Of a DNA stretch of 64,000 nucleotides, positions 2,737 to 39,911 are shown in pieces. The notes below the pieces were generated by a model that worked only from the letters and a program-made list of their open reading frames with translations, was not told where the DNA came from and did no database searches. A program made the translations under genes and the position numbers. The first letter of the stretch is position 1. Each line of letters opens with the position of its first letter. The stretch is from the NCBI GenBank assembly GCA_900772475.1, contig CAAHEI010000105.1:13393-77392 (forward strand), written 5' to 3'. The stretch comes from Clostridia bacterium (GTDB lineage Bacteria > Bacillota > Clostridia > TANB77 > CAG-465).

Positions 2737-3270
2737 TTAACTCCTAAAATACATATTTCCAATTTTAAAAATTCCGTAATTTTCGCAAAATTCTTTTTCA
2801 CTCATTGTTTCTAAATCTTTTTTAATTTCTTTTATTTCTTGCTCTACTGCGTCAACACCATTCCCAAATATTATATCTTCAAAATATGTTTTCATAAGTC
2901 TGTGATAATCTTCTTCATAGTCATAACTTGTAAAAATTCTGTCCATATACTCGTATTTGTCTAGTTGTTGTAATTGATTGATTATTTCTGTTTTTGTTTG
3001 GTTCTTTATGTTAATATCAAAACTTTCCATAACTTGTCTAAAATCGTCAAGAATCTCAATCATATAGTTGCCATTGACAAGTGTTACATAATTGCCGTCA
3101 GCAAGTTGTACTTGTATTTCATCAGTATAGGTGGTGTCTTTTTTGTGTGTTATACTCTCAATAAGTGCCACCAAACTATCTTCCATTTTATACCAATTTT
3201 CGTCTTTTAATTTTGTTAATTGTTCGTTGTGTTCCATAAAATCGGTAACTTGTTCTCTAATTGTTTTCAT
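2737..3270 (-). CDS. hypothetical protein, paralogous C-terminus to 2309..2731
   Basis: ORF track. Shares a C-terminal motif with the adjacent ORF. Confidence 0.6.
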   Translation of the reverse strand: MKTIREQVTDFMEHNEQLTKLKDENWYKMEDSLVALIESITHKKDTTYTDEIQVQLADGNYVTLVNGNYMIEILDDFRQVMESFDINIKNQTKTEIINQLQQLDKYEYMDRIFTSYDYEEDYHRLMKTYFEDIIFGNGVDAVEQEIKEIKKDLETMSEKEFCENYGIFKIGNMYFRS

Positions 3271-3694: not shown

Positions 3695-4147
3695 TTATTC
3701 TCCTTTTGCATAATTTATAATATCTTTTGTTAATTGTTTATATGCACTTTCCAAGTCTTCCAATGTGTCATAGCCCCAATATTCAATTTCTTTACCAATG
3801 CTATCAAATAATTGTATAGACCAACCAAAAGTATCATCATCATTTTTATCTTTCGTTACAACGACTTTGCAATTATCTATTGTAAATATTTTTTTATCGT
3901 TAGAGTTCATGTTTTCAAGCGAATAAAATTGCCAATCATTGTAAAAGTTGTATGTTGATTTTTCTTTATAAATTTTTATCAATTCTGTTAAACATTCCAT
4001 ATCGTCTTGTGGAAGTCTGTTATACATTTCTTGTGTGAAGTTTTTAATCGTGTCCAATTCTTTTATTTTGTTGTTTGTGGTGTTGTAAAATACAATTTCT
4101 TGTTTTTTGTTATCGTAACACCAGTTTGTTATATCTTTATAGTCCAT
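3695..4147 (-). CDS. hypothetical protein
   Basis: ORF track. Co-directional array. Confidence 0.6.
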   Translation of the reverse strand: MDYKDITNWCYDNKKQEIVFYNTTNNKIKELDTIKNFTQEMYNRLPQDDMECLTELIKIYKEKSTYNFYNDWQFYSLENMNSNDKKIFTIDNCKVVVTKDKNDDDTFGWSIQLFDSIGKEIEYWGYDTLEDLESAYKQLTKDIINYAKGE

Positions 4148-4150
4148 TGT

Positions 4151-4462
4151 TTAATTCTCTTTTCCGTAGTTTAAAATATAATCTCTATAGCTCTTTTTAC
4201 TTGTATATTCCTTATTGTAAGAACTGTTGTATATTTTACAACCTAAGTCATAAAACTTGTCTAAAATATTGCACATTTCGTTTTTTAGATTGTTGTCACT
4301 TTTTGCATTTTTACTTGCAGAAAATACACTCATACTTTTTTCATATAGTTTGTTGTAAAGTACATTAAGTTGTTCTATTTCTTTTTTATTTTTCTCTTGA
4401 AAATCTTTGCAAAATATTCGTTCCTTTATTACTCCAAATTTTAAGCCAATATAATTTTCCAT
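4151..4462 (-). CDS. hypothetical protein
   Basis: ORF track. Co-directional array. Confidence 0.6.
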   Translation of the reverse strand: MENYIGLKFGVIKERIFCKDFQEKNKKEIEQLNVLYNKLYEKSMSVFSASKNAKSDNNLKNEMCNILDKFYDLGCKIYNSSYNKEYTSKKSYRDYILNYGKEN

Positions 4463-4476
4463 TTTATAAAATCTCC

Positions 4477-4692
4477 TTATTTCTTATATGTTTTAATTTT
4501 ATCTCTTTTTGTAATACAAAATTTGATATAGTCTAAATATTCATTATCCAGTGTTTCAAGCCACATTTCTAGGTCTGAATAAAAATTACTTTCTGTAAAT
4601 GTTATTTCTACGCTGTCGATTTCTCCATTTTTATATTTTGTTGTTTTAACTTCGTTCAATTTCCCATTTGACCTTATAATTAATTTTTTCAT
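4477..4692 (-). CDS. hypothetical protein
   Basis: ORF track. Co-directional array. Confidence 0.55.
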   Translation of the reverse strand: MKKLIIRSNGKLNEVKTTKYKNGEIDSVEITFTESNFYSDLEMWLETLDNEYLDYIKFCITKRDKIKTYKK

Positions 4693-4693
4693 T

Positions 4694-5041
4694 TTATAAA
4701 ATCTCCTTTTCTTTAAAAATTTCTAGTCTTGTTTGTTTTGAATTTTTAAATTCGTTATATATAATCAAATGTTTATTTGGTGCTGTTATATATTTTATAA
4801 CTTCCAAAATAACTCCATTACCCTTTTGGTGTGAGAAAATTTTCATCAATTCTTTGAGTGTTGGTGCTTGCAGTATCTCGTCAAGAAAATATTTTTTCTC
4901 ATATCCTTTGTTTTGTTGGTTGCTAATTTGCTCGTAAATAATTTTTAGTGCTGTTATAACATCTTGCTCATCACTTGCAATTTTTAAAATGCATTTCAGT
5001 CGTTTTATTTCTTGTTTTATATGTTTATTAAAAATAATCAT
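4694..5041 (-). CDS. hypothetical protein
   Basis: ORF track. Its start overlaps the stop of the upstream ORF 5038..5259 by 4 nt, suggesting coupled translation. Confidence 0.6.
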   Translation of the reverse strand: MIIFNKHIKQEIKRLKCILKIASDEQDVITALKIIYEQISNQQNKGYEKKYFLDEILQAPTLKELMKIFSHQKGNGVILEVIKYITAPNKHLIIYNEFKNSKQTRLEIFKEKEIL

Positions 5042-8429: not shown

Positions 8430-8771
8430 TTAGTTATTGCAGTAAATACATTTTTTTGTGTTCCAGTCAAAGATTGATATTTGTTTTAGTTCCTTGCCAA
8501 GTTTTAAAGCCTTAGAAAGTGAATCAATTTTAATTGATATATCAATGTAAGCTTTTCCTTCTTCTATCCAGATTCCACAAAATTCGTTTTGTTTGATTGT
8601 GTTTAGTATGTTGTTGATTGCGTCCAGTACTTCGTTTGTGTTGTTTATGTTTAATGTGTAGCAGTCTTTCTTGCTGACTTGATAGCCTTTTTTGAATTCT
8701 ACAGATTCGCCGTTTTTATTTAGTGTTGCTCCGTTGTTTTTTATTATGTTTTTTAATGTTTGTAACTTCAT
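8430..8771 (-). CDS. hypothetical protein, first gene of the leftward arm
   Basis: ORF track. AAGGGAG RBS. Lies directly downstream of the sigma70-like promoter at 8804-8832. Confidence 0.65.
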   Translation of the reverse strand: MKLQTLKNIIKNNGATLNKNGESVEFKKGYQVSKKDCYTLNINNTNEVLDAINNILNTIKQNEFCGIWIEEGKAYIDISIKIDSLSKALKLGKELKQISIFDWNTKKCIYCNN

Positions 8772-8959: not shown

Positions 8960-9131
8960 TATATATTGTATAATAAATATATTAGAATAGTAAAAAAGTT
9001 TAAAATATTGTTGTTTTTATGCCTTTACTGATGCTTTGAAGTTTTTTATATATTTTTATTATAGTATAAAATTTTTTAATTTTTTTTTATAAAATAGTTC
9101 ACTTATTTATTTTTTGCGTTTGTTTTGGTTC

Positions 9132-9164
9132 GTTCCAGAAGTTCCAGAAGTTCCAGCCGTTGCC
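9132..9164. repeat. tandem 9-bp repeat GTTCCAGAA x2 + GTTCCAGCC + GTTGCC
   Basis: Read directly from the sequence. The 13-mer TTCCAGCCGTTGC (9151-9163) is also present at 8286-8298. Confidence 0.8.
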
Positions 9165-9169
9165 TGCTT

Positions 9170-9480
9170 TTTTGTTCTTTTATATTATATTATTAAAAAT
9201 ATATATTTTAAAAATTTTTTATATATTATATTATTATGCTTTGCGTTCTGTTTTTATGCTTGTTTTGCGTGTTTTTTTGTTCGTGCTTTTGTTTTATTAT
9301 GTATGTATTATATTTTATATATTATTTTTTTGTTTATATTTTAGTTTTGTTTTTATATTGTTTTTATATTATTATAGTTTTTTTGTTTTGCTTTTTTCTT
9401 TTTTATTATTGTTGTTGTATATCTTTTTTTTTGTTTTTGTTTTATTATTATATATTTTTTATTGTTTGAAAGATTTTAAA
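9170..9480. repeat. T-rich, C-depleted low-complexity tract (non-coding)
   Basis: My hand count for 9181-9480 is about 10 C, about 30 G, and T far exceeding A. There are many TTTTG/TTTTAT words. The track ORFs here translate to F/L/Y/C/V strings only. Confidence 0.7.
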
Positions 9481-9660: not shown

Positions 9661-9819
9661 TAATATATACACGAATGTATCAGCGGGGGTATGTTTTAAG
9701 CAATGAAGCACAAAAAACCGCCAGCCCCTAGTAGCACTTCCATCCATGCCTAGCAATTGAAAATTTTTTATTTTTGAACGTAATTCGATAGGCCAATAAT
9801 AGTTTTTTTTCAAGAGTAG

Positions 9820-10100
9820 ATTTGGGGGTTTTGTTTTAGCGATAGCGAGAAAGTTTTAAAAATTGCAGAGATTAAGTTTTAAAAATTTTTTTTATGGCGA
9901 AGTGAAAGTAAGAAATTTTAAAATTTTTTTGAAAGATTGTGAGGGGGTAGTGGGAGGCGGTGGAAAAATTTTTTAGCGAAAAAGTTTTATGTGGCATGGA
10001 AGGTATCAAATTGCTGAGGTCGTGGAAATGATGGAGGGGTGTTGGCGAAAATAAAATGGGTGGAGATGTTGAGCGGGGTGGAGGGGGCCGTGGGAAATAG
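9820..10100 (+). other. G-run / A-T-tract mosaic, strongly G>C skewed, non-coding
   Basis: G3-G5 runs (GAGGGGGTAGTGGGAGGCGGTGG at 9941-9963; GGGTGGAGATGTTGAGCGGGGTGGAGGGGGCCGTGGG at 10058-10094) alternate with AAGTTTTAAAAATT-type tracts. There are very few C on the + strand. Confidence 0.6.
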
Positions 10101-10110
10101 TTCAAATTAT

Positions 10111-10139
10111 TTGACAAAAAGTCAAATTTGTGGTATAGT
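10111..10139 (+). promoter_or_regulatory. sigma70-like promoter (TTGACA-17-TATAGT, TTTGTGG upstream of -10)
   Basis: TTGACA at 10111-10116, a 17-nt spacer ending TTTGTGG, then TATAGT at 10134-10139. The architecture matches the promoter at 13443. Confidence 0.65.
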
Positions 10140-10148
10140 AGAGGCAAG

Positions 10149-10832
10149 ATGGAAAAAGTTGAAAAGTTTGAGAACACGAAAAAGTTTTGTAAGCACTGGT
10201 GGAGAGTTTATAGTCCAAGAAGGATTGAATACTGCGACTATGAGCAAGAATGTGCGGTGGTGTTTTTTGAGAAACTTGTCTCATATTCAATGAGGGAAGC
10301 AATAGCAATTTGGAACAAAAGATATAAATATGTTTTATTGCAGATGATATATAAGAATAAGTCAAATATGGCAATTAATATTAATATTGAAAATGTTGGA
10401 TGCTCGGATAATTATTTCCTTATTGATGATATTGGACTCACAACAAAAGAAGCTTTTATTTGCAAAGGTTTGATTGACGATGAAACATATAGAGATCTGG
10501 ATGCAAACAGACAAGATATACTTGGACTTCGCAAGAAAGTTGGGGATTATTTTGAAATAGATTATAAGCATAGGGGTAATGCGAAGAAAAATATTTCAGA
10601 GATAGGGCTAGCGAATTTGAGAAGTGGGATTAAAAAAATTGCACATTTTGGTCGTGAAAAGTCTATACAAGCGAGACAAAGGAAAATGAATATGATTGAC
10701 AATGGTATAGTTGTAAAAACTTTTTTAAGTCTTAAAGAAGCAGCATCTTTTATAGGCAAGACTCCTGGTGGAATAAGAAGTGCGATTAGGCATAATTGTA
10801 AATGTGGGGGGTATAATTGGCAGTATGCATAA
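10149..10832 (+). CDS. NUMOD1/NUMOD3-like DNA-binding protein (homing-endonuclease-type DNA-binding module, no recognisable nuclease domain)
   Basis: The C-terminus VVKTFLSLKEAASFIGKTPGGIRSAIRHNCKCGGYNWQYA is the classic NUMOD1 pattern. An upstream basic NUMOD3-like stretch is present. I saw no GIY-YIG, HNH or LAGLIDADG motif. The start at ATG 10149 is only about 10 nt after the -10 box, so the mRNA may be nearly leaderless and the start is uncertain. Confidence 0.5.
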   Translation: MEKVEKFENTKKFCKHWWRVYSPRRIEYCDYEQECAVVFFEKLVSYSMREAIAIWNKRYKYVLLQMIYKNKSNMAININIENVGCSDNYFLIDDIGLTTKEAFICKGLIDDETYRDLDANRQDILGLRKKVGDYFEIDYKHRGNAKKNISEIGLANLRSGIKKIAHFGREKSIQARQRKMNMIDNGIVVKTFLSLKEAASFIGKTPGGIRSAIRHNCKCGGYNWQYA

Positions 10833-11751
10833 TGAAGATTATGAAAATGTTTTAGACGGCGACATTTTGAATGTTTTACTCAAGGATAGAACGACTGGCA
10901 AAAATATAATTTGGGCAACGGACAATTATGGATTTAGTCCAGGTGAAGAAATAAAAATTGAAAACTTGCCTTTGATAAAACCTAGATTGGAGAAAAGCAA
11001 GGAAGAACAGCAGAAAAGGACAAAGGGTAAAGCTGAAGTATTTACTCCATCGTGGATATGCAATGATATGAATAATAACTTGACAGAAGAGTGGTTTGGT
11101 AGAAAAAATGTTTTTAATGTATCTACCGGACGGGGATGGAAAACAAACAACGAGAAAATTTCTTTTCCTTGTGTAGAGGGTAAAAATTGGCTAGACTATG
11201 TTCGCTCCACAGTGCTTGAAATAACTTGTGGGGAAGGGCCATTTCTTGTAAGCAGATATGATACAGTCACCGGGGAATACATAGACCCTTTTGATAGAAT
11301 CGGTTTGTTAGATAGAAAAATCCGAGTGGTGAATGAAAATATTGATTTTGGTAGTGATGGTTGGTTCGAGATAATTCTTGAAGCATATAAGGCTACCTAT
11401 GGTTATGAATTTCAAGGCGATAATTTATTCCTTGCGAGAAAAAATTTATTGCTAACTTTTATAGACAATTATCAATTAAGAATAAACAAATATGTAGACA
11501 AAGAAAAACTTTTACAAGTTGCAGAAATAATTTCGTGGAATTTGTGGCAAATGGACGGGTTAAAATATGTGATACCTAATAGTTGTAAAACCACAAATCA
11601 AGGACAAATATCTCTTTTTACTAGTGATTCTGAGAAAGAATGTCCTGGATGTAAAGAAAATAATATTTTAAAACATACTGGAATCTATTGTAAAATAAAA
11701 GATTGGAAAACAAATTCTGTTGGAAGATTTGTAGATATTGTGAAAAAATAA
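10825..11751 (+). CDS. gamma-class (Eco57I/TaqI-type) methyltransferase-like protein lacking a visible NPPY motif
   Basis: AEVFTPSWICNDM looks like motif X (FTP), VLEITCGEGPFLV like motif I, and YGYEFQGDNLFLARKNL like motif II/III. I found no (N/D/S)PP(Y/F). ATG 10825 overlaps the upstream stop (ATGCATAA). Confidence 0.4.
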   Translation: MHNEDYENVLDGDILNVLLKDRTTGKNIIWATDNYGFSPGEEIKIENLPLIKPRLEKSKEEQQKRTKGKAEVFTPSWICNDMNNNLTEEWFGRKNVFNVSTGRGWKTNNEKISFPCVEGKNWLDYVRSTVLEITCGEGPFLVSRYDTVTGEYIDPFDRIGLLDRKIRVVNENIDFGSDGWFEIILEAYKATYGYEFQGDNLFLARKNLLLTFIDNYQLRINKYVDKEKLLQVAEIISWNLWQMDGLKYVIPNSCKTTNQGQISLFTSDSEKECPGCKENNILKHTGIYCKIKDWKTNSVGRFVDIVKK

Positions 11752-11771
11752 ATAAATTTTAAAAAAAATAG

Positions 11772-11800
11772 TTGACAAAATAAAAAATATGTGATATTGT
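11772..11800 (+). promoter_or_regulatory. sigma70-like promoter (TTGACA-17-TATTGT) driving the ncRNA
   Basis: TTGACA at 11772-11777, a 17-nt spacer ending ATGTGA, then TATTGT at 11795-11800. It shares ...ATGTGATATT with the promoter at 12404. Confidence 0.55.
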
Positions 11801-11806
11801 ATAATC

Positions 11807-12270
11807 GGTTTTTAACAAACTAAAGACTCTGGTCTATTTGGAAGACGACAAACAGGCTAGTTCAACTGAATAGACTAGAGGATTGTAAAATTCACAAAGA
11901 AAAGTGGCGTCTTACACTGAGTATTTGTGAATTTTATTTTACAATTTACAGCTCATAGCTAGAGAGCTTCAACAAAAAATAGCGGGTGAACTTGGGTGCC
12001 TATTCCTCAGTTTACTGCAGAGTGGTAACTAATCGCCATGACATGCCACAATAAATAAAGAAGGCGGGGTAGGGTTCATTCGGATGAGGGGCCTTTCACA
12101 ATACCAATGGACCGAATCGTTGGTGTGAAAGTGTGTTTGAAACAACACATCTGCAACAGGCATTGCAAAAAAAAAGACAGAAACTTCAACAAGTGGATTG
12201 TATGTTTAAGTAGCAATAAAGCAGAGTTTTCTCTTCTTTGCAAGGGGATACTCTACCTATTGCTATTTTT
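11807..12270 (+). ncRNA. large structured non-coding RNA (about 460 nt), class unknown (ROOL/GOLLD-type candidate)
   Basis: It has its own promoter and no RBS-preceded ORF, and it is visibly more G+C-rich than its flanks. Stems seen: 12 bp (11827-11838/11869-11880), 13+3 bp (11883-11898/11924-11944), 11950-11968, 12094-12130, 12131-12150. A three-tier terminal hairpin (12211-12265) is followed by TTTTT. A tRNA lies about 550 nt downstream. Confidence 0.6.
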
Positions 12271-12328
12271 AACATTGCTTAACAAATGGATTGTGTATTT
12301 AATATATATTATATAAAAGGAGAAAAAT

Positions 12329-12394
12329 ATGTTGCATTTCTTAATATGCTCAATATTATTGGCAATTTTAAAGCCGTTTTTGTTTAAAAGATAA
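12329..12394 (+). CDS. 21-aa hydrophobic peptide MLHFLICSILLAILKPFLFKR
   Basis: AAAGGAG lies 7 nt upstream of ATG 12329. The peptide has a single predicted TM-like stretch with a basic C-terminus. It is below the ORF-track cutoff. Confidence 0.4.
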   Translation: MLHFLICSILLAILKPFLFKR

Positions 12395-12403
12395 TAAAAA
12401 TAT

Positions 12404-12432
12404 TTGACAAAAATGGCAAAATGTGATATTAA
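12404..12432 (+). promoter_or_regulatory. sigma70-like promoter (TTGACA-17-TATTAA)
   Basis: TTGACA at 12404-12409, a 17-nt spacer ending ATGTGA, then TATTAA at 12427-12432, about 30 nt upstream of ATG 12463. Confidence 0.55.
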
Positions 12433-12462
12433 AATTGTAGAATATGGTGTGAGGATAAATAG

Positions 12463-12813
12463 ATGAGCACGCTTTATAAGGGGAGATATTTAATAGCGAT
12501 TTATGATAAGGATGATTATTTGGTTGATGTATCAGGCAATCCATCAACATTGAAATGTTTTAAAAATTCAGCCGTCGCTAGGTCCATAATTTCTAAAGTG
12601 TTTAATGGCGAAAGGAAAAATGAAAGCATACATTTTATTGATGTATTTGAAAAACATGATGATATTTTTTCCGATGAGGATAAGGTTTTTTTAGAATTTG
12701 TTGAAATGGAAAAGACATCAAAAAATACGATTGCGAGTTTTTGCAGAGAAAATAATATTAGTGAGCGCACATTTTATAGAAAAAATAGTATTCAAAAAGG
12801 AATGGAGTTGTAA
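12463..12813 (+). CDS. small HTH-like DNA-binding protein
   Basis: ORF track. GAGGA RBS. The C-terminal TIASFCRENNISERTFYRK looks like a helix-turn-helix. Confidence 0.6.
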   Translation: MSTLYKGRYLIAIYDKDDYLVDVSGNPSTLKCFKNSAVARSIISKVFNGERKNESIHFIDVFEKHDDIFSDEDKVFLEFVEMEKTSKNTIASFCRENNISERTFYRKNSIQKGMEL

Positions 12814-13471: not shown

Positions 13472-13507
13472 ATAAATATATTTTATAGAAAAGGTGTAGT
13501 TTCCCTG

Positions 13508-37262: not shown

Positions 37263-39911
37263 ATGGCTGATTTAAGTATTAAGTTAAAAACTGAAGCGGA
37301 TGCTCAATCATTCGCAAAATCGGTAAATGATTTATCAAAAAAAGTCCCTCCCGTAAAGATAAAAATTTCATCATCTGTGGGTGATGGTATTGGCTCGTTA
37401 GAAAAAAAACTTGGTCCATTGTCTTCTCGAATAGCGGATACCTATGAAAGATTGGCATCATTAAGAACCGAGGGTTCTTTAACTGAAAAATCTTTTTTTG
37501 ACTTATCTGCTCAAGTAGATAATGTTAGAGAAAGTTTAGAAAAGGGAAATATATCGTTTGCAAAAGGTTCGTCTATCTTAGATAAAATAACAGATTCTGC
37601 CAATGGTACAAAAACTGGATTTTTTAATTTGTCTCAAGGACTAATTGATGCTGCATCGAAATTTACTACATGGTATTTATTGGCTGGAGTTATTACTGGC
37701 ATAATAAATGCGCTAAAACAAATGGTAGCAGAAGTTATTTCTTTAGATGCTGCAATGGTTGAATTAAATAAAGTATTCGATGCTAGTAATATAGAACTCA
37801 ATAGAGTAAAAGATAGAGCATTTGAATTAGCCGATGGACTAGGCACTACTGGTAAGGCAGTAATTGAGGCGACAACTGAATTTAAACGAATGGGTTATAC
37901 CATTAACGAATCTTTAGATTTAGCTAAAGTTGCAACAACAATGACAAATGTTGCGGAAGGGATAACGGACACTGGTGAGGCAGCGAATATATTAACTTCA
38001 ATCCTAAAAGGTACTGGCGTTTCATCGGAATATGCCATGTCATTATTGGATAGGCTCAATGAAGTTTCAAATAATAATGCAATAAGTTTTGATGCTTTAG
38101 CAAATATGTTGCAGTCAACTGCTTCTACAATGAATATTCTTGGGAATAACACCGACGAAACAATTGGTATGTTGACGGGTGCCTATGCAGTTATTCAAGA
38201 TGAGCGTGTTGGAAAAGCGCTTACGACTATCGGTCTAAGAATTTCGGGATTAAATGAAGATTTAGAAACTGAAGCAGGGCTTGCAAATGATGTATCTAAA
38301 TCGTTGCAAAAATATGCAGGAATAAATGTTTTTGATGAACAAACAGGCCAAATAAAAAGCACATACGAGATAATGAAAGAACTATCTACAGTATGGGATG
38401 ACTTAAATAAAAATGAACAGGCGGTGTTATTGAATAAACTTGCTGGTAAAAATAGGGCAGACGTTGCGGCTGCGCTATTGGCAAACTGGGAAAATGTCGA
38501 TGAGGCAATTGAAGACGCTGCCAATAGTTTGGGGTCTGCAACAAAGGAGAACGAGAAACACTTAAATAGTATTAAAGGAAAACTTGAAGCTATAAAAAAT
38601 CTCTTTCAGGAAACTGCAAAAGAAATGATACCCCAAGAAGTTATTAAATCCACATTGGATTTGGTAAAGGCATTGATGGAAGTTGTGAAACCTATTGGAA
38701 CTGCAGTGGGTCTAATGATAAAGGCCAGCGGTATTTCACAGCAATTTAAGTCGCTTGCAAATGCACTTTCTCTTATTGGCAAGTATTTGCAAGGAATTTA
38801 TAAATTTTGGCAGCCAGTTATAGATGTAATATATACTCTTCAGGAAAGCATATTTACTATAACAAATTCAATTAGCGACGAGTTATTTGAAGGATTAGAA
38901 TTGTTAGCAAAAAAAATCATGGAATGGTTTGGTCCAGTTATCAATATATTTAATAAAGTAACAGGATGGATATCAAATACTACTTCTAAGGCTGTAGAGC
39001 GGATAAAAGGCTGGTTCGGAGAAGTTGATAAAGATGCCAAAGACCTTGCGGAAACTTTTAATAAGTCTGAAAAGGATGTAAATGATTATGACAAGGCATT
39101 ATTCAATTTAAAAAAAACTTTGGGTGAACTAAGGGTTGAAAACGAAGAGACTTTAGAAAATTTAAAAAAACAAAATAAAGAAATTGAAAATCAAAAAGAA
39201 CTTAATGATAAATTGTTAGCAGTTGAAAAAGCCAGACAAGAATTAGCAGATGCTAAAAATAAAAGAGTTCGTGTATTTCGTGCTGGTATTGGCTTTACTT
39301 ATGAATCTGATACATCTGAAGTGCAGGCTGCACAAGAAAATTTGCAATCTGCTATTGATGAATTAAGCGAGTTTAAATATGATTTGATACTTTCAAGGGC
39401 AGAAGAATTTGTTGAAAAATTTGCTGAGATATTATCTGGTGATGATATGACTGAAGGTTGGCAAGAATTGTTTGATAATTTTGCTGATTTGATGGGCACA
39501 GAATTTGAATATTTTATAACAAATGCTAAGGAATCGATAAAAGAATTTAATAAAACGGTGAAAGAAAACTCAGTACTTAAAGACCCAAAAGGGACAATTT
39601 CATTAAACACAGATGAGCATAATGCAAGTGGAGATATCAATTTTAAAGGTGGACCCACTTGGGTTGGTGAACACGGCCCGGAAATTGTAAATCTGCCACA
39701 GGGTAGTGAAATATTGAGCCATAATAAATCAATTAGGCTAACAAGTTTAGTAAACAATCCAAACAAATTTCTTACAGGATCCAGTAAAAATATAACATTA
39801 CAGTTTAACGGGCCTTTAGAGTTTCCTAATGTAACATCCGCAGAGGATGCAAGTGGGTTTATAGATGCTGTAGTATCTGTAGGAAATTCAAGAGTTCCAA
39901 AATATTCTTAA
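37263..39911 (+). CDS. tail tape measure protein
   Basis: 882 aa and alpha-helical or coiled-coil rich. The core is TP901-type (AMVELNKVFD...LGTTGKAVIEATTEFKRMGYT...NVAEGITDTGEAANILTS). The C-terminal GGPTWVGEHGPEIVNLPQGSEI motif is typical of tape measure proteins. Confidence 0.85.
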   Translation: MADLSIKLKTEADAQSFAKSVNDLSKKVPPVKIKISSSVGDGIGSLEKKLGPLSSRIADTYERLASLRTEGSLTEKSFFDLSAQVDNVRESLEKGNISFAKGSSILDKITDSANGTKTGFFNLSQGLIDAASKFTTWYLLAGVITGIINALKQMVAEVISLDAAMVELNKVFDASNIELNRVKDRAFELADGLGTTGKAVIEATTEFKRMGYTINESLDLAKVATTMTNVAEGITDTGEAANILTSILKGTGVSSEYAMSLLDRLNEVSNNNAISFDALANMLQSTASTMNILGNNTDETIGMLTGAYAVIQDERVGKALTTIGLRISGLNEDLETEAGLANDVSKSLQKYAGINVFDEQTGQIKSTYEIMKELSTVWDDLNKNEQAVLLNKLAGKNRADVAAALLANWENVDEAIEDAANSLGSATKENEKHLNSIKGKLEAIKNLFQETAKEMIPQEVIKSTLDLVKALMEVVKPIGTAVGLMIKASGISQQFKSLANALSLIGKYLQGIYKFWQPVIDVIYTLQESIFTITNSISDELFEGLELLAKKIMEWFGPVINIFNKVTGWISNTTSKAVERIKGWFGEVDKDAKDLAETFNKSEKDVNDYDKALFNLKKTLGELRVENEETLENLKKQNKEIENQKELNDKLLAVEKARQELADAKNKRVRVFRAGIGFTYESDTSEVQAAQENLQSAIDELSEFKYDLILSRAEEFVEKFAEILSGDDMTEGWQELFDNFADLMGTEFEYFITNAKESIKEFNKTVKENSVLKDPKGTISLNTDEHNASGDINFKGGPTWVGEHGPEIVNLPQGSEILSHNKSIRLTSLVNNPNKFLTGSSKNITLQFNGPLEFPNVTSAEDASGFIDAVVSVGNSRVPKYS

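Follow-up and report, generated by a model that had tools for sequence, protein, structure and literature searches.

We sought to identify what is encoded by about 464 nucleotides (nt), near positions 11807 to 12270, of a phage genome carried on a 64,000-nt stretch of Clostridia bacterium contig CAAHEI010000105.1 (the window, by which we mean this whole stretch). A first-pass annotation had placed here a promoter-driven, highly structured non-coding RNA next to a tRNA gene, belonging either to the ROOL/GOLLD class or to an undescribed class of large phage RNA. Is this a genuine RNA gene, and if so, what would its product be? The evidence supports well the prediction of a genuine structured RNA gene. 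We consider it probable, at roughly 60%, that its product acts in trans as a folded RNA particle, represents a new family and is encoded in an early phage island.

A predicted transcription unit shared by four phage lineages

The elements that delimit the predicted gene are the following.

11772-11777, plus strand: -35 box TTGACA of a sigma-70-type early promoter, followed by a 17-nt spacer
11792-11793, plus strand: TG of the extended -10 element
11795-11800, plus strand: -10 box TATTGT
12188-12209, plus strand: direct repeat copy 1, 22 nt
12208-12268, plus strand: P10, a three-tier hairpin
12266-12270, plus strand: U5 tract of P10
12281-12302, plus strand: direct repeat copy 2, downstream of P10
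12817-12903: tRNA-Leu(UAA), found by ARAGORN, 547 nt downstream of the RNA gene

These agree with what the first-pass annotation had described: a TTGACA-17-TATTGT promoter, a three-tier terminal hairpin with a U-tract, a 22-nt direct repeat around it (the copies are 86% identical and spaced by 93 nt) and a tRNA-Leu about 550 nt downstream. The promoter matches the consensus at 10 of 12 positions and in addition has the extended -10 TG. Promoters of the same type stand at 10111, 13213 and 13443, each heading another early unit of the window, and the type is kept in the homologues described below (TTGACA-17-TGnTATTAT in L027 and L051; TTGACA-17-TGGTAATGT in L192). Transcription would start at about 11807, giving a predicted RNA gene of about 464 nt from there to about 12270, and a read-through form would add repeat copy 2. 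The raised G+C content that had been noticed is 0.42 at 11900-12199, compared with 0.22-0.30 in the flanks and about 30% in the window.

Relatives were reached via neighbouring proteins: homologues of the phage's RNA polymerase, graded from 98% to 45% identity, were collected and their contigs then fetched. Copies of the RNA were found in four lineages, labelled as follows.

Lineage A: the window copy
Lineage A' (L026): 98.4% identical to the window RNA over 557 nt
Lineage B (L027, L028, L029 and L040): mutually identical, and 75.6% identical to the window over about 560-565 nt
Lineage C (L051): a short form of about 300 nt with the promoter and hairpins P1 to P3 in common with the window, then diverging (nhmmer E=1e-11)
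Lineage D (L192): found via a 65%-identical homologue of the methylase-like gene upstream, and more diverged than B

A covariance model, R1, built from hairpins P2 to P4, scored 182.6 bits on the window, 165.3 bits on lineage B, 117.1 bits on D (E=2e-25) and 40.5 bits on C (E=8e-7), and found no other match in the polymerase relatives at 45-77% identity. A weak R1 match (17 bits, E 0.02-0.16) at 4234-4320 of L036, and also in L037 and L038, lies in the spacer between the polymerase halves and is probably due to chance.

The alignment of A, A' and B pinpoints the limits of what is shared, since similarity runs from the -35 box to about 15 nt past repeat copy 2 and both flanks are unrelated. In D the unit stands at another genome position, upstream of three genes that precede the RNA in A and B. 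What stands behind the methylase-like gene in D is a promoter and a tRNA-Gln in place of the RNA. Comparison thus shows the predicted RNA gene to be a self-contained module in four lineages of Firmicutes phages with a YonO-type polymerase. Beyond these four lineages no homologue was found in Rfam 15, in GenBank phages, in 2.9 million IMG/VR contigs or in 185,000 reference genomes. BLAST of the RNA region and the surrounding 20 kilobases (kb) gave no match among GenBank phages. Exact-pattern scans with the conserved blocks returned no true copy in the IMG/VR contigs, one coding chance match in GTDB genomes and, in the JGI metagenomes, only L040 (the source of that member of lineage B) together with ten GC-rich chance matches. 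A loose three-block pattern gave 120 chance loci (L054-L173) and no true copy. The RNA family is real but rare.

Helices maintained by compensatory change

The fold was assembled from the following helices, loops and strands, all read on the plus strand.

11807-11812 (GGUUUU) with 12088-12093 (GGGGCC), plus strand: P0, 6 pairs, closing the 5' domain
11827-11841 with 11866-11880, plus strand: P1 hairpin, 15 base pairs (bp), conserved core UAUUUGG/CUGAAUA, large apical loop
11842-11847, plus strand: L1 hexamer AAGACG, pairing with the L2 hexamer CGUCUU at 11908-11913
11882-11945, plus strand: P2 long hairpin, with outer stem 11882-11885/11942-11945, a U-rich 5-nt bulge at 11937-11941 and a 13-bp inner stem 11886-11898/11924-11936
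Upper part of P2, plus strand: GAAA/GAGUA internal loop, apical stem 11903-11906/11915-11918 and loop L2
11950-11968, plus strand: P3 hairpin, stem AGCUC/GAGCU, 9-nt loop AUAGCUAGA with palindrome UAGCUA
11982-12018, plus strand: P4 hairpin, 8-nt loop L4 at 11997-12004
12022-12026 (GUGGU) with 12045-12049 (GCCAC), plus strand: P5, a tentative hairpin with an 18-nt loop
12063-12087, plus strand: G-rich core GGCGGGGUAGGGU, then the 5' strand of P11
12073-12080 (GGUUCAUU) with 12192-12199 (AGUGGAUU, inside repeat copy 1), plus strand: P11
12094-12099/12125-12130 plus 12103-12109/12118-12124, plus strand: P7, in the 3' domain
12131-12137/12144-12150, plus strand: P8, in the 3' domain
12152-12154/12165-12167, plus strand: P9 with loop L9 at 12155-12162, in the 3' domain (12094-12167)

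The stems that had been read by eye in the first pass are all among these. Its 12-bp stem at 11827-11838/11869-11880 has the same outer limits as P1, which reaches 15 bp here; its 13+3-bp stem resolves into the inner 13 bp of P2 and the outer stem across the 5-nt bulge; and its hairpins at 11950-11968, 12094-12130 and 12131-12150 were found as P3, P7 and P8. The plus strand of the window copy folds with a minimum free energy (MFE) of -134.6 kcal/mol (z = -4.8), and none of 100 dinucleotide shuffles folds as well. The reverse strand folds more weakly (z = -3.6). The homologues reach z-scores of -6.75 in B and -6.43 in D.

If these helices are real, then homologues should keep the pairing through changes on both sides, and the first-pass annotation had set its claim to stand or fall on such covarying pairs. 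Two alignments were scored. In A10, a plain MAFFT alignment of A, A', B and D that was not fitted to structure, 97.4% of the cells of 108 pairs are paired and 30 pairs are changed on both sides, compared with 3-6 in slid controls; in A8, which covers only P2 to P4, was fitted to R1 and holds four sequences representing all four lineages, every cell of 35 pairs is paired and 15 pairs are changed on both sides, compared with 0-2 in slid controls, both sets of counts resting on four lineages and being indicative rather than a formal test. The covariation score observed in A10 was reached by none of 500 column shuffles, and the signal is spread across P0, P2, P3, P4, P7, P8, the L4/L9 helix and P11. 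P1 was left out of the A10 column counts because MAFFT shifts it; the MFE folds of the four lineages all include this hairpin, and its lower stem differs in sequence in each yet remains paired.

Within the 5' domain, both-side changes affect 5 of 13 inner and 3 of 4 apical pairs of P2 as well as 7 of 13 pairs of P4 (A10). The GAAA/GAGUA internal loop of P2 has the pattern of a loop-E-like element. The stem of P3 covaries (AU/GC, and GCGG/CCGC in L051) around a loop that A, B and D share unchanged and for which C has AUAGCCAA. P5 does not vary between A and B, and L051 has a short loop closed by the same GUGG/CCAC; on this latter evidence an earlier version of P5, GUGGU/AUCGC, was replaced. The core GG(C/U)GGGGUAGGGU is invariant in A, B and D. 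P0, whose 5' strand would be the first six nucleotides of the transcript, has 95.8% of cells paired and shows G-C replaced by A-U in B, U.G replaced by C-G, and a U-A pair in L026 by a single change. In the 3' domain, which is absent from the short lineage C, P7, P8 and P9 are 91-100% paired in A10, with both-side changes at 4 pairs of P7 and 2 of P8. Two helices proposed by RNAalifold were rejected: one joining 11825-11835 to the G core, which is broken in B and competes with P1, and a 5' hairpin at 11807-11813/11824-11830, also broken in B.

Two further similarities were seen inside the RNA. In L027, 3094-3116 resembles 3171-3193 (window 11966-11988 and 12045-12070), with GCC-UUAACAAAAAA-CAGCGGGG facing GCC-ACAAUAAAAAA-CGACGGCGG; this may be a recurring A-rich linker with a GCGGG module, or the trace of an internal duplication. 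The apical loop of P7 at 12110-12117 (GACCGAAU; GACUGAAU in B) is similar to the P1 3' strand at 11863-11869, and a duplex between this loop and the invariant AUUUGG of the P1 5' strand could be as good as the real one or better, which may reflect an alternative conformation or a coincidence.

Loop-loop contacts rewritten between lineages

Two contacts join hairpin loops. The L1 hexamer follows immediately on the 3' side of the conserved P1 strand UAUU(U/C)GG in every lineage, and in all four it is the exact Watson-Crick reverse complement of a hexamer at the same position in the apical loop of P2.

Lineage A, L1/L2: AAGACG/CGUCUU
Lineage B, L1/L2: GUAACG/CGUUAC
Lineage D, L1/L2: CUGAAC/GUUCAG
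Lineage C, L1/L2: CCACAA/UUGUGG

By our own estimate, which is not a computed test, a given hexamer would meet its complement in an 8-nt loop with a chance of about 7e-4. Since position-matched complements recur across lineages, chance is very unlikely as the origin of L1/L2. UGGCGU in the P2 loop, which we at first took for a conserved motif, was dropped as such, since it belongs to this covarying kiss.

In the second contact, L4, the whole 8-nt loop of P4, pairs with L9 in the loop of P9. In A10, 96.9% of the cells of this helix are paired, and both-side changes affect five of its 8 pairs.

Lineage A, L4/L9: UGCCUAUU/AACAGGCA, with one A.C mismatch
Lineage A', L4/L9: UGCCUGUU/AACGGGCA
Lineage B, L4/L9: UGUCUAUC/GAUAGACA
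Lineage D, L4/L9: UGCUCACU/AGUGGGCA

L026 differs from the window at few positions; two of them are in exactly these loops, and the pairing is kept. Lineage C, which has no P7-P9, has GCCUAU paired inside a hairpin of its own, GAUAGG-UAAG-CCUAUC.

A further long-range helix, P11, joins the strand that comes after the invariant GG(C/U)GGGGUAGG to repeat copy 1; 2 of its 8 pairs are changed on both sides and 90.6% of cells are paired in A10. Both strands differ in D and still pair, and cross-lineage combinations of the strands fail to pair. P0 and P11 cross, therefore the fold is pseudoknotted. Two other contacts were discarded. One would join the core GCGGGG to the P10 loop; A and B allow it with wobble pairs, and on manual reading of L192 it is lost in D. 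The other, in which the 5' end would pair with repeat copy 1, was discarded since the bases concerned lie upstream of the predicted start.

Coding potential

A small protein could also account for conservation of the region, encoded either by a 69-amino-acid (aa) open reading frame (ORF) at 12107-12316 on the plus strand or by a 44-aa ORF at 12029-12163 on the minus strand. Both ORFs exist in the window, and the minus-strand one has a 41-aa counterpart in B. The plus-strand ORF, whose translation would have told against the first-pass annotation, has no counterpart in B, where it is destroyed by gaps of 3 nt and 4 nt (7 gap columns). Substitutions between A and B fall 12/5/9 by codon position in this ORF and 8/6/11, with a 2-nt gap, in the minus-strand ORF, in neither case with a third-position excess. 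Neither has a Shine-Dalgarno sequence, though the genes of this phage have strong ones, and the substitutions in the region preserve pairing. The minus-strand ORF survives in B only through conservation of the region, and we give the small-protein explanation scarcely any credence. About 464 nt are thus left with no conserved ORF, as had been claimed. Numerous helix changes pass via G-U (for example C-G to U-G, or A-U to G-U); this fits an RNA read from the plus strand and not a set of DNA hairpins. The locus has the features predicted of a structured non-coding RNA gene in general, namely its own promoter and terminator, no conserved ORF, and compensatory changes.

Terminal hairpin, direct repeat and the possibility of a leader

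P10 is 96-100% paired in A10 with one-sided changes only, and its U-tract probably makes it a terminator in A and B. The sequence of P10 is conserved beyond what a terminator needs. In D the hairpin is kept and the U-tract is missing, therefore read-through is likely in that lineage. The core of the repeat around P10 reads GGAUUGU in A and in B, where both copies carry a T-to-G change, and GCGAUAAUUU in both D copies. The copies thus change together across lineages, and copy 2 can make nearly the same duplex with the core strand as copy 1. The simplest account is that both copies are maintained complementary to the core strand, copy 2 being relevant only in a read-through RNA.

This arrangement recalls a very large cis-acting leader, a riboswitch or attenuator whose core would decide on termination at P10 with the repeat copies as alternative partners. 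Complementarity of both copies to one core strand across lineages fits such a device, as do the U-tract of P10 in A and B, conservation that runs beyond the terminator through copy 2, the likely read-through in D, and a short ORF with a strong Shine-Dalgarno sequence at 12329-12394 in A. However, copy 2 is transcribed after the termination decision and therefore cannot influence it, and no known aptamer was detected by Rfam 15 in three copies. Nor is the downstream content conserved: behind the RNA come, in A, a 21-aa ORF followed by a gene that has its own promoter; in B and D, AT-rich spacers ahead of promoters; and in C, about 650 nt away, a gene on the opposite strand. Since the downstream neighbour differs in every lineage and is on the opposite strand in C, the RNA does not look like a leader, and we regard the leader explanation as improbable, preferring an RNA that acts in trans.

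The short ORF downstream is an observation in its own right. It lies directly after repeat copy 2 on the plus strand, encodes 21 hydrophobic residues (MLHFLICSILLAILKPFLFKR) behind an AAAGGAG Shine-Dalgarno sequence at 12316-12322, is found in L026 too and is absent from lineages B, C and D; by its sequence it looks like a small membrane peptide or a type-I-toxin-like ORF. A second early promoter, TTGACA...TGTGATATTAAAAT, follows at 12405-12435, ahead of a 116-aa protein (12463-12813) with weak similarity to RinA/helix-turn-helix proteins. After this gene come the tRNA-Leu and then an 89-aa protein that is kept just upstream of the polymerase in all relatives examined.

The phage and the early RNA-gene island

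The window carries the genes of a phage, among them the following.

10780-11751, plus strand: 323-aa orphan methylase-like protein, upstream of the RNA
13505-15256 plus 15266-16339: split YonO-type single-subunit RNA polymerase (PF05183 match)
19281-21026: large terminase
21042-22730: portal
37263-39911: tape-measure protein

The polymerase matches PF05183 with E=4.4e-11 and 42.6 bits (cut-off 23.8), in line with a YonO-type enzyme, and by tblastn it matches SPbeta-group Bacillus phages, Clostridium phage c-st and Enterocloster phages. These relatives point to a host that is very probably a low-G+C Firmicute, of gut type. ARAGORN found the tRNA-Leu as the only tRNA of the window, and no tmRNA. 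In relatives without the RNA, the slot upstream of the polymerase holds tRNAs by ARAGORN (5 in L052, 4 in L053 and 1 in L034), with additional Rfam tRNA matches in L052 and L034. L035, whose polymerase is 69% identical, has three consecutive non-coding units of about 100-270 nt each in the equivalent slot (4105-5001); each has the TTGACA-17-TGnTAT promoter type and a terminator-like end, with fold z down to about -4.9, and their sequence is unrelated to the window RNA. Since the equivalent slot holds tRNA arrays or other non-coding units in relatives, it is an early RNA-gene island. L052 shows in addition a DUF3800-XI RNA match within its tRNA array (1184-1242) and a group I intron (8448-8679, 62 bits) beside a LAGLIDADG-like ORF in the structural-gene region.

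Genes are on the minus strand left of about 7.4 kb and on the plus strand from 10.1 kb on. Between these divergent arms lies a 2.7-kb region with an extremely T-rich low-complexity tract (9100-9480, G+C 11-15%) and a G-rich purine tract (9800-10100), where GC and AT skew flip sign; it may be an origin or an early control region. A T-rich tract similar to that at 9100-9480 stands directly 3' of the RNA gene in L051.

AT-rich DNA near the RNA raises the question of whether it could be a replication-origin transcript, either a structured primer or an RNA that forms an R-loop, as with ColE1 RNA II or the T4 and T7 promoter-plus-AT-tract origins. A strong promoter followed by a structured G-rich RNA would suit such a role, in B, C and D the gene is directly followed by an extremely AT-rich tract of about 110-250 nt, and repeat copy 1 in the RNA is complementary to the template strand at copy 2. 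In the window, however, the AT-rich tract is only about 20 nt long and a U-tract terminator intervenes, the switch in composition and orientation and the T-rich tract lie at 6-10 kb, 2.3 kb upstream, and covariation keeps an RNA tertiary fold that priming alone does not need. An origin transcript therefore seems distinctly improbable to us.

Around the RNA stand protein genes of a kind typical of early or anti-defence cargo. The following were found beside it in the homologues.

L027 2646-2882, L051 439-660 and L192 3355-3570: small zinc-ribbon gene, 71-78 aa, Lar-like
L026 2801-3238: Macro-domain gene, between the methylase-like gene and the RNA promoter

In B, C and D only a few nucleotides separate the end of the zinc-ribbon gene from the RNA promoter, and the gene accompanies the RNA to its different genome position in D. 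Its protein is our best candidate for a partner of the RNA. Two of the three proteins score 19.3 and 18.5 bits (E about 1e-3) against PF14354, the Lar restriction-alleviation zinc ribbon, below its cut-off of 28.6, and the third gives no hit. The Macro-domain gene is inserted in the 98%-identical L026, therefore this spot is an accessory-gene hot-spot, and the genes entering it are probably anti-defence genes.

The 323-aa methylase-like protein, named 'restriction endonuclease subunit M' or 'putative RNA methylase' in the sources, has thousands of homologues. Its C-terminus carries a CxxC...GIYC motif like that of the small zinc-ribbon protein. It was considered as the partner of the RNA and set aside, because its homologues in IMG/VR (L001-L021) have no similar RNA; there an ORF of 1100-1450 aa follows the gene instead, which is not the case in the window.

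Transfer of the zinc-ribbon and RNA genes as a unit to another position in D would also be expected of a ribozyme or mobile-element RNA (for example a guide RNA, a bridge RNA, or one that splices or cleaves itself), and the complex pseudoknotted core with invariant junction nucleotides would fit a catalyst. Against this, no intron or ribozyme model matches, no gene is interrupted, no transposase, recombinase, reverse transcriptase, IscB, TnpB or Cas gene adjoins the RNA or occurs among the ORFs scanned, and the repeats flank P10 only rather than the whole module. We judge this origin of the RNA very improbable.

Search for a known RNA family

The first-pass annotation had named ROOL, GOLLD, HEARO, raiA and the group I/II introns as the models to be scanned, and none of these families matched. 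At gathering score Rfam 15 finds only the tRNA-Leu in the whole window. At a permissive E<=10, 11600-12500 gives seven unrelated matches of 14-22 bits, compared with gathering scores of 41-195, the best (E=0.94) being to a CRISPR repeat model on the opposite strand; the models of ROOL, GOLLD, HEARO/IscB omega RNA, raiA, OLE, group I/II introns, RNase P, tmRNA, 6S and T-box give no match at that level. The same holds for the homologues at 2900-3460 of L027 and 680-1060 of L051, where no family matched at E<=10.

A divergent member of ROOL or GOLLD would share the setting of the window RNA, in a phage and a tRNA island with the tRNA-Leu 547 nt downstream, and also its large size and covarying kissing loops (PMC12286853). 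Yet neither RF03087 nor RF01998 nor any other family matches three diverged copies at E<=10, no shared sequence blocks were seen, and the RNA has about 464 nt where many GOLLD members exceed 800 nt (PMC12286853). We regard membership of either class as extremely unlikely. The half of the earlier proposal that named ROOL or GOLLD is thus not supported, and the half that spoke of an undescribed large phage RNA is supported, with a unit that runs from promoter to terminator and covaries. The window RNA appears to form a new family, resembling ROOL and GOLLD in kind and unrelated to them.

Discussion

Taken together, covariation indicates that the RNA would fold into a compact pseudoknotted particle. 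Its 5' domain would be closed by P0 and carry P1 to P5, with the tips of P1 and P2 joined by the 6-bp kiss; the 3' domain, P7 to P9, would be tied to P4 by the 8-bp loop-loop helix and closed by P11, formed by repeat copy 1 and the strand beside the G-rich core, with hairpin P10 following. From its context the RNA would act in trans, alone or with a protein, and early in infection, within an island of host-takeover, anti-defence and tRNA genes. Repeat copy 2 would serve as an alternative partner of the core strand in read-through transcripts.

We can go one step further only tentatively. The L1/L2 and L4/L9 contacts, together with the palindromic P3 loop, might bridge molecules and so build an RNA-only multimer, a third unrelated class of phage nanocage or ring; or the RNA might be the subunit of an anti-defence ribonucleoprotein with the Lar-like zinc-ribbon protein. 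We think it rather unlikely that this more specific proposal is correct.

Several observations weigh against a trans-acting particle or limit how far it can be taken. Four lineages are known to carry the RNA, one of them in short form, and close relatives with the same polymerase lack it, therefore the RNA is dispensable. Lineage A has no zinc-ribbon gene beside the RNA or anywhere in the 64 kb of the window, therefore a protein partner is not obligatory. P5, the upper part of P7 and P10 are near-invariant, and on these covariation is silent. The start and the end of the transcript are both predicted positions, sequence alone fits kissing contacts within one molecule or between molecules, and an antisense-target scan of the window gave chance-level AT-rich matches only.

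It is rare for a bacterial or phage RNA to be large and to have an intricate conserved tertiary fold, and every such RNA has led to new biology, as with ribozymes, riboswitches, OLE and the ROOL and GOLLD cages. For so few sequences the evidence presented here is unusually clean, as two loop-loop helices change wholly between lineages and stay complementary. The natural minimal form of 300 nt in lineage C and the zinc-ribbon protein as candidate partner offer experimental handles. The results show that the tRNA islands of phages with YonO-type polymerases are early 'RNA gene' islands in general, and such RNAs are missed by the standard catalogues.

Comparison with known systems

The nearest likeness is to ROOL (RF03087), a large stand-alone folded non-coding RNA of Firmicutes phages and prophages that is often found near tRNA islands, is not known to have a protein partner and has covarying kissing loops (PMC12286853). 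The window phage with its tRNA-Leu offers the same setting, which is not specific to ROOL. The window RNA differs in having no covariance-model match at E<=10, a different helix layout and a very narrow distribution, with no copy in 2.9 million IMG/VR contigs. At about 464 nt it is also shorter than ROOL, which has about 580 nt and assembles into an RNA-only homo-oligomeric cage. The covarying kissing loops of ROOL and GOLLD proved to be bridges between molecules (PMC12286853).

GOLLD (RF01998) is likewise phage-borne and found beside tRNA genes, has two domains of which one is less conserved, and is reported to rise in expression during lysis (PMC12286853). The window RNA shares the phage-borne, tRNA-adjacent position and the loop-loop contacts, and its P7-P9 domain is dispensable, lineage C being without it. 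It differs in having no model match, about half the size and an early promoter of host type.

The pRNA of the phi29 family (RF00044) is a structured phage RNA with its own early promoter and with covarying loop-loop complementarity as a key of its architecture. It has about 120-174 nt and belongs to protein-primed podoviruses. The window RNA does not match its model, and the window phage has a terminase, a portal and a tape-measure protein.

ColE1 RNA II and the T4/T7 origin transcripts are, like the window RNA, promoter-driven structured RNAs of several hundred nucleotides, and in B, C and D the RNA gene adjoins AT-rich DNA. The window RNA differs in its 3' end, which in A and B is a hairpin with a U-tract, and in having neither an AT-rich tract in the window copy nor an antisense partner gene, and the likely origin-like region lies elsewhere in this genome.

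Finally, the lysine and cobalamin riboswitches recall the window RNA in several parts of their architecture: a closing helix, a multi-way junction, two long hairpins with a 6-bp kiss, a loop-E-like internal loop in one of these hairpins, and a downstream regulatory hairpin. The window RNA is 2-3 times larger than these riboswitches, matches no model and is followed by no conserved gene.

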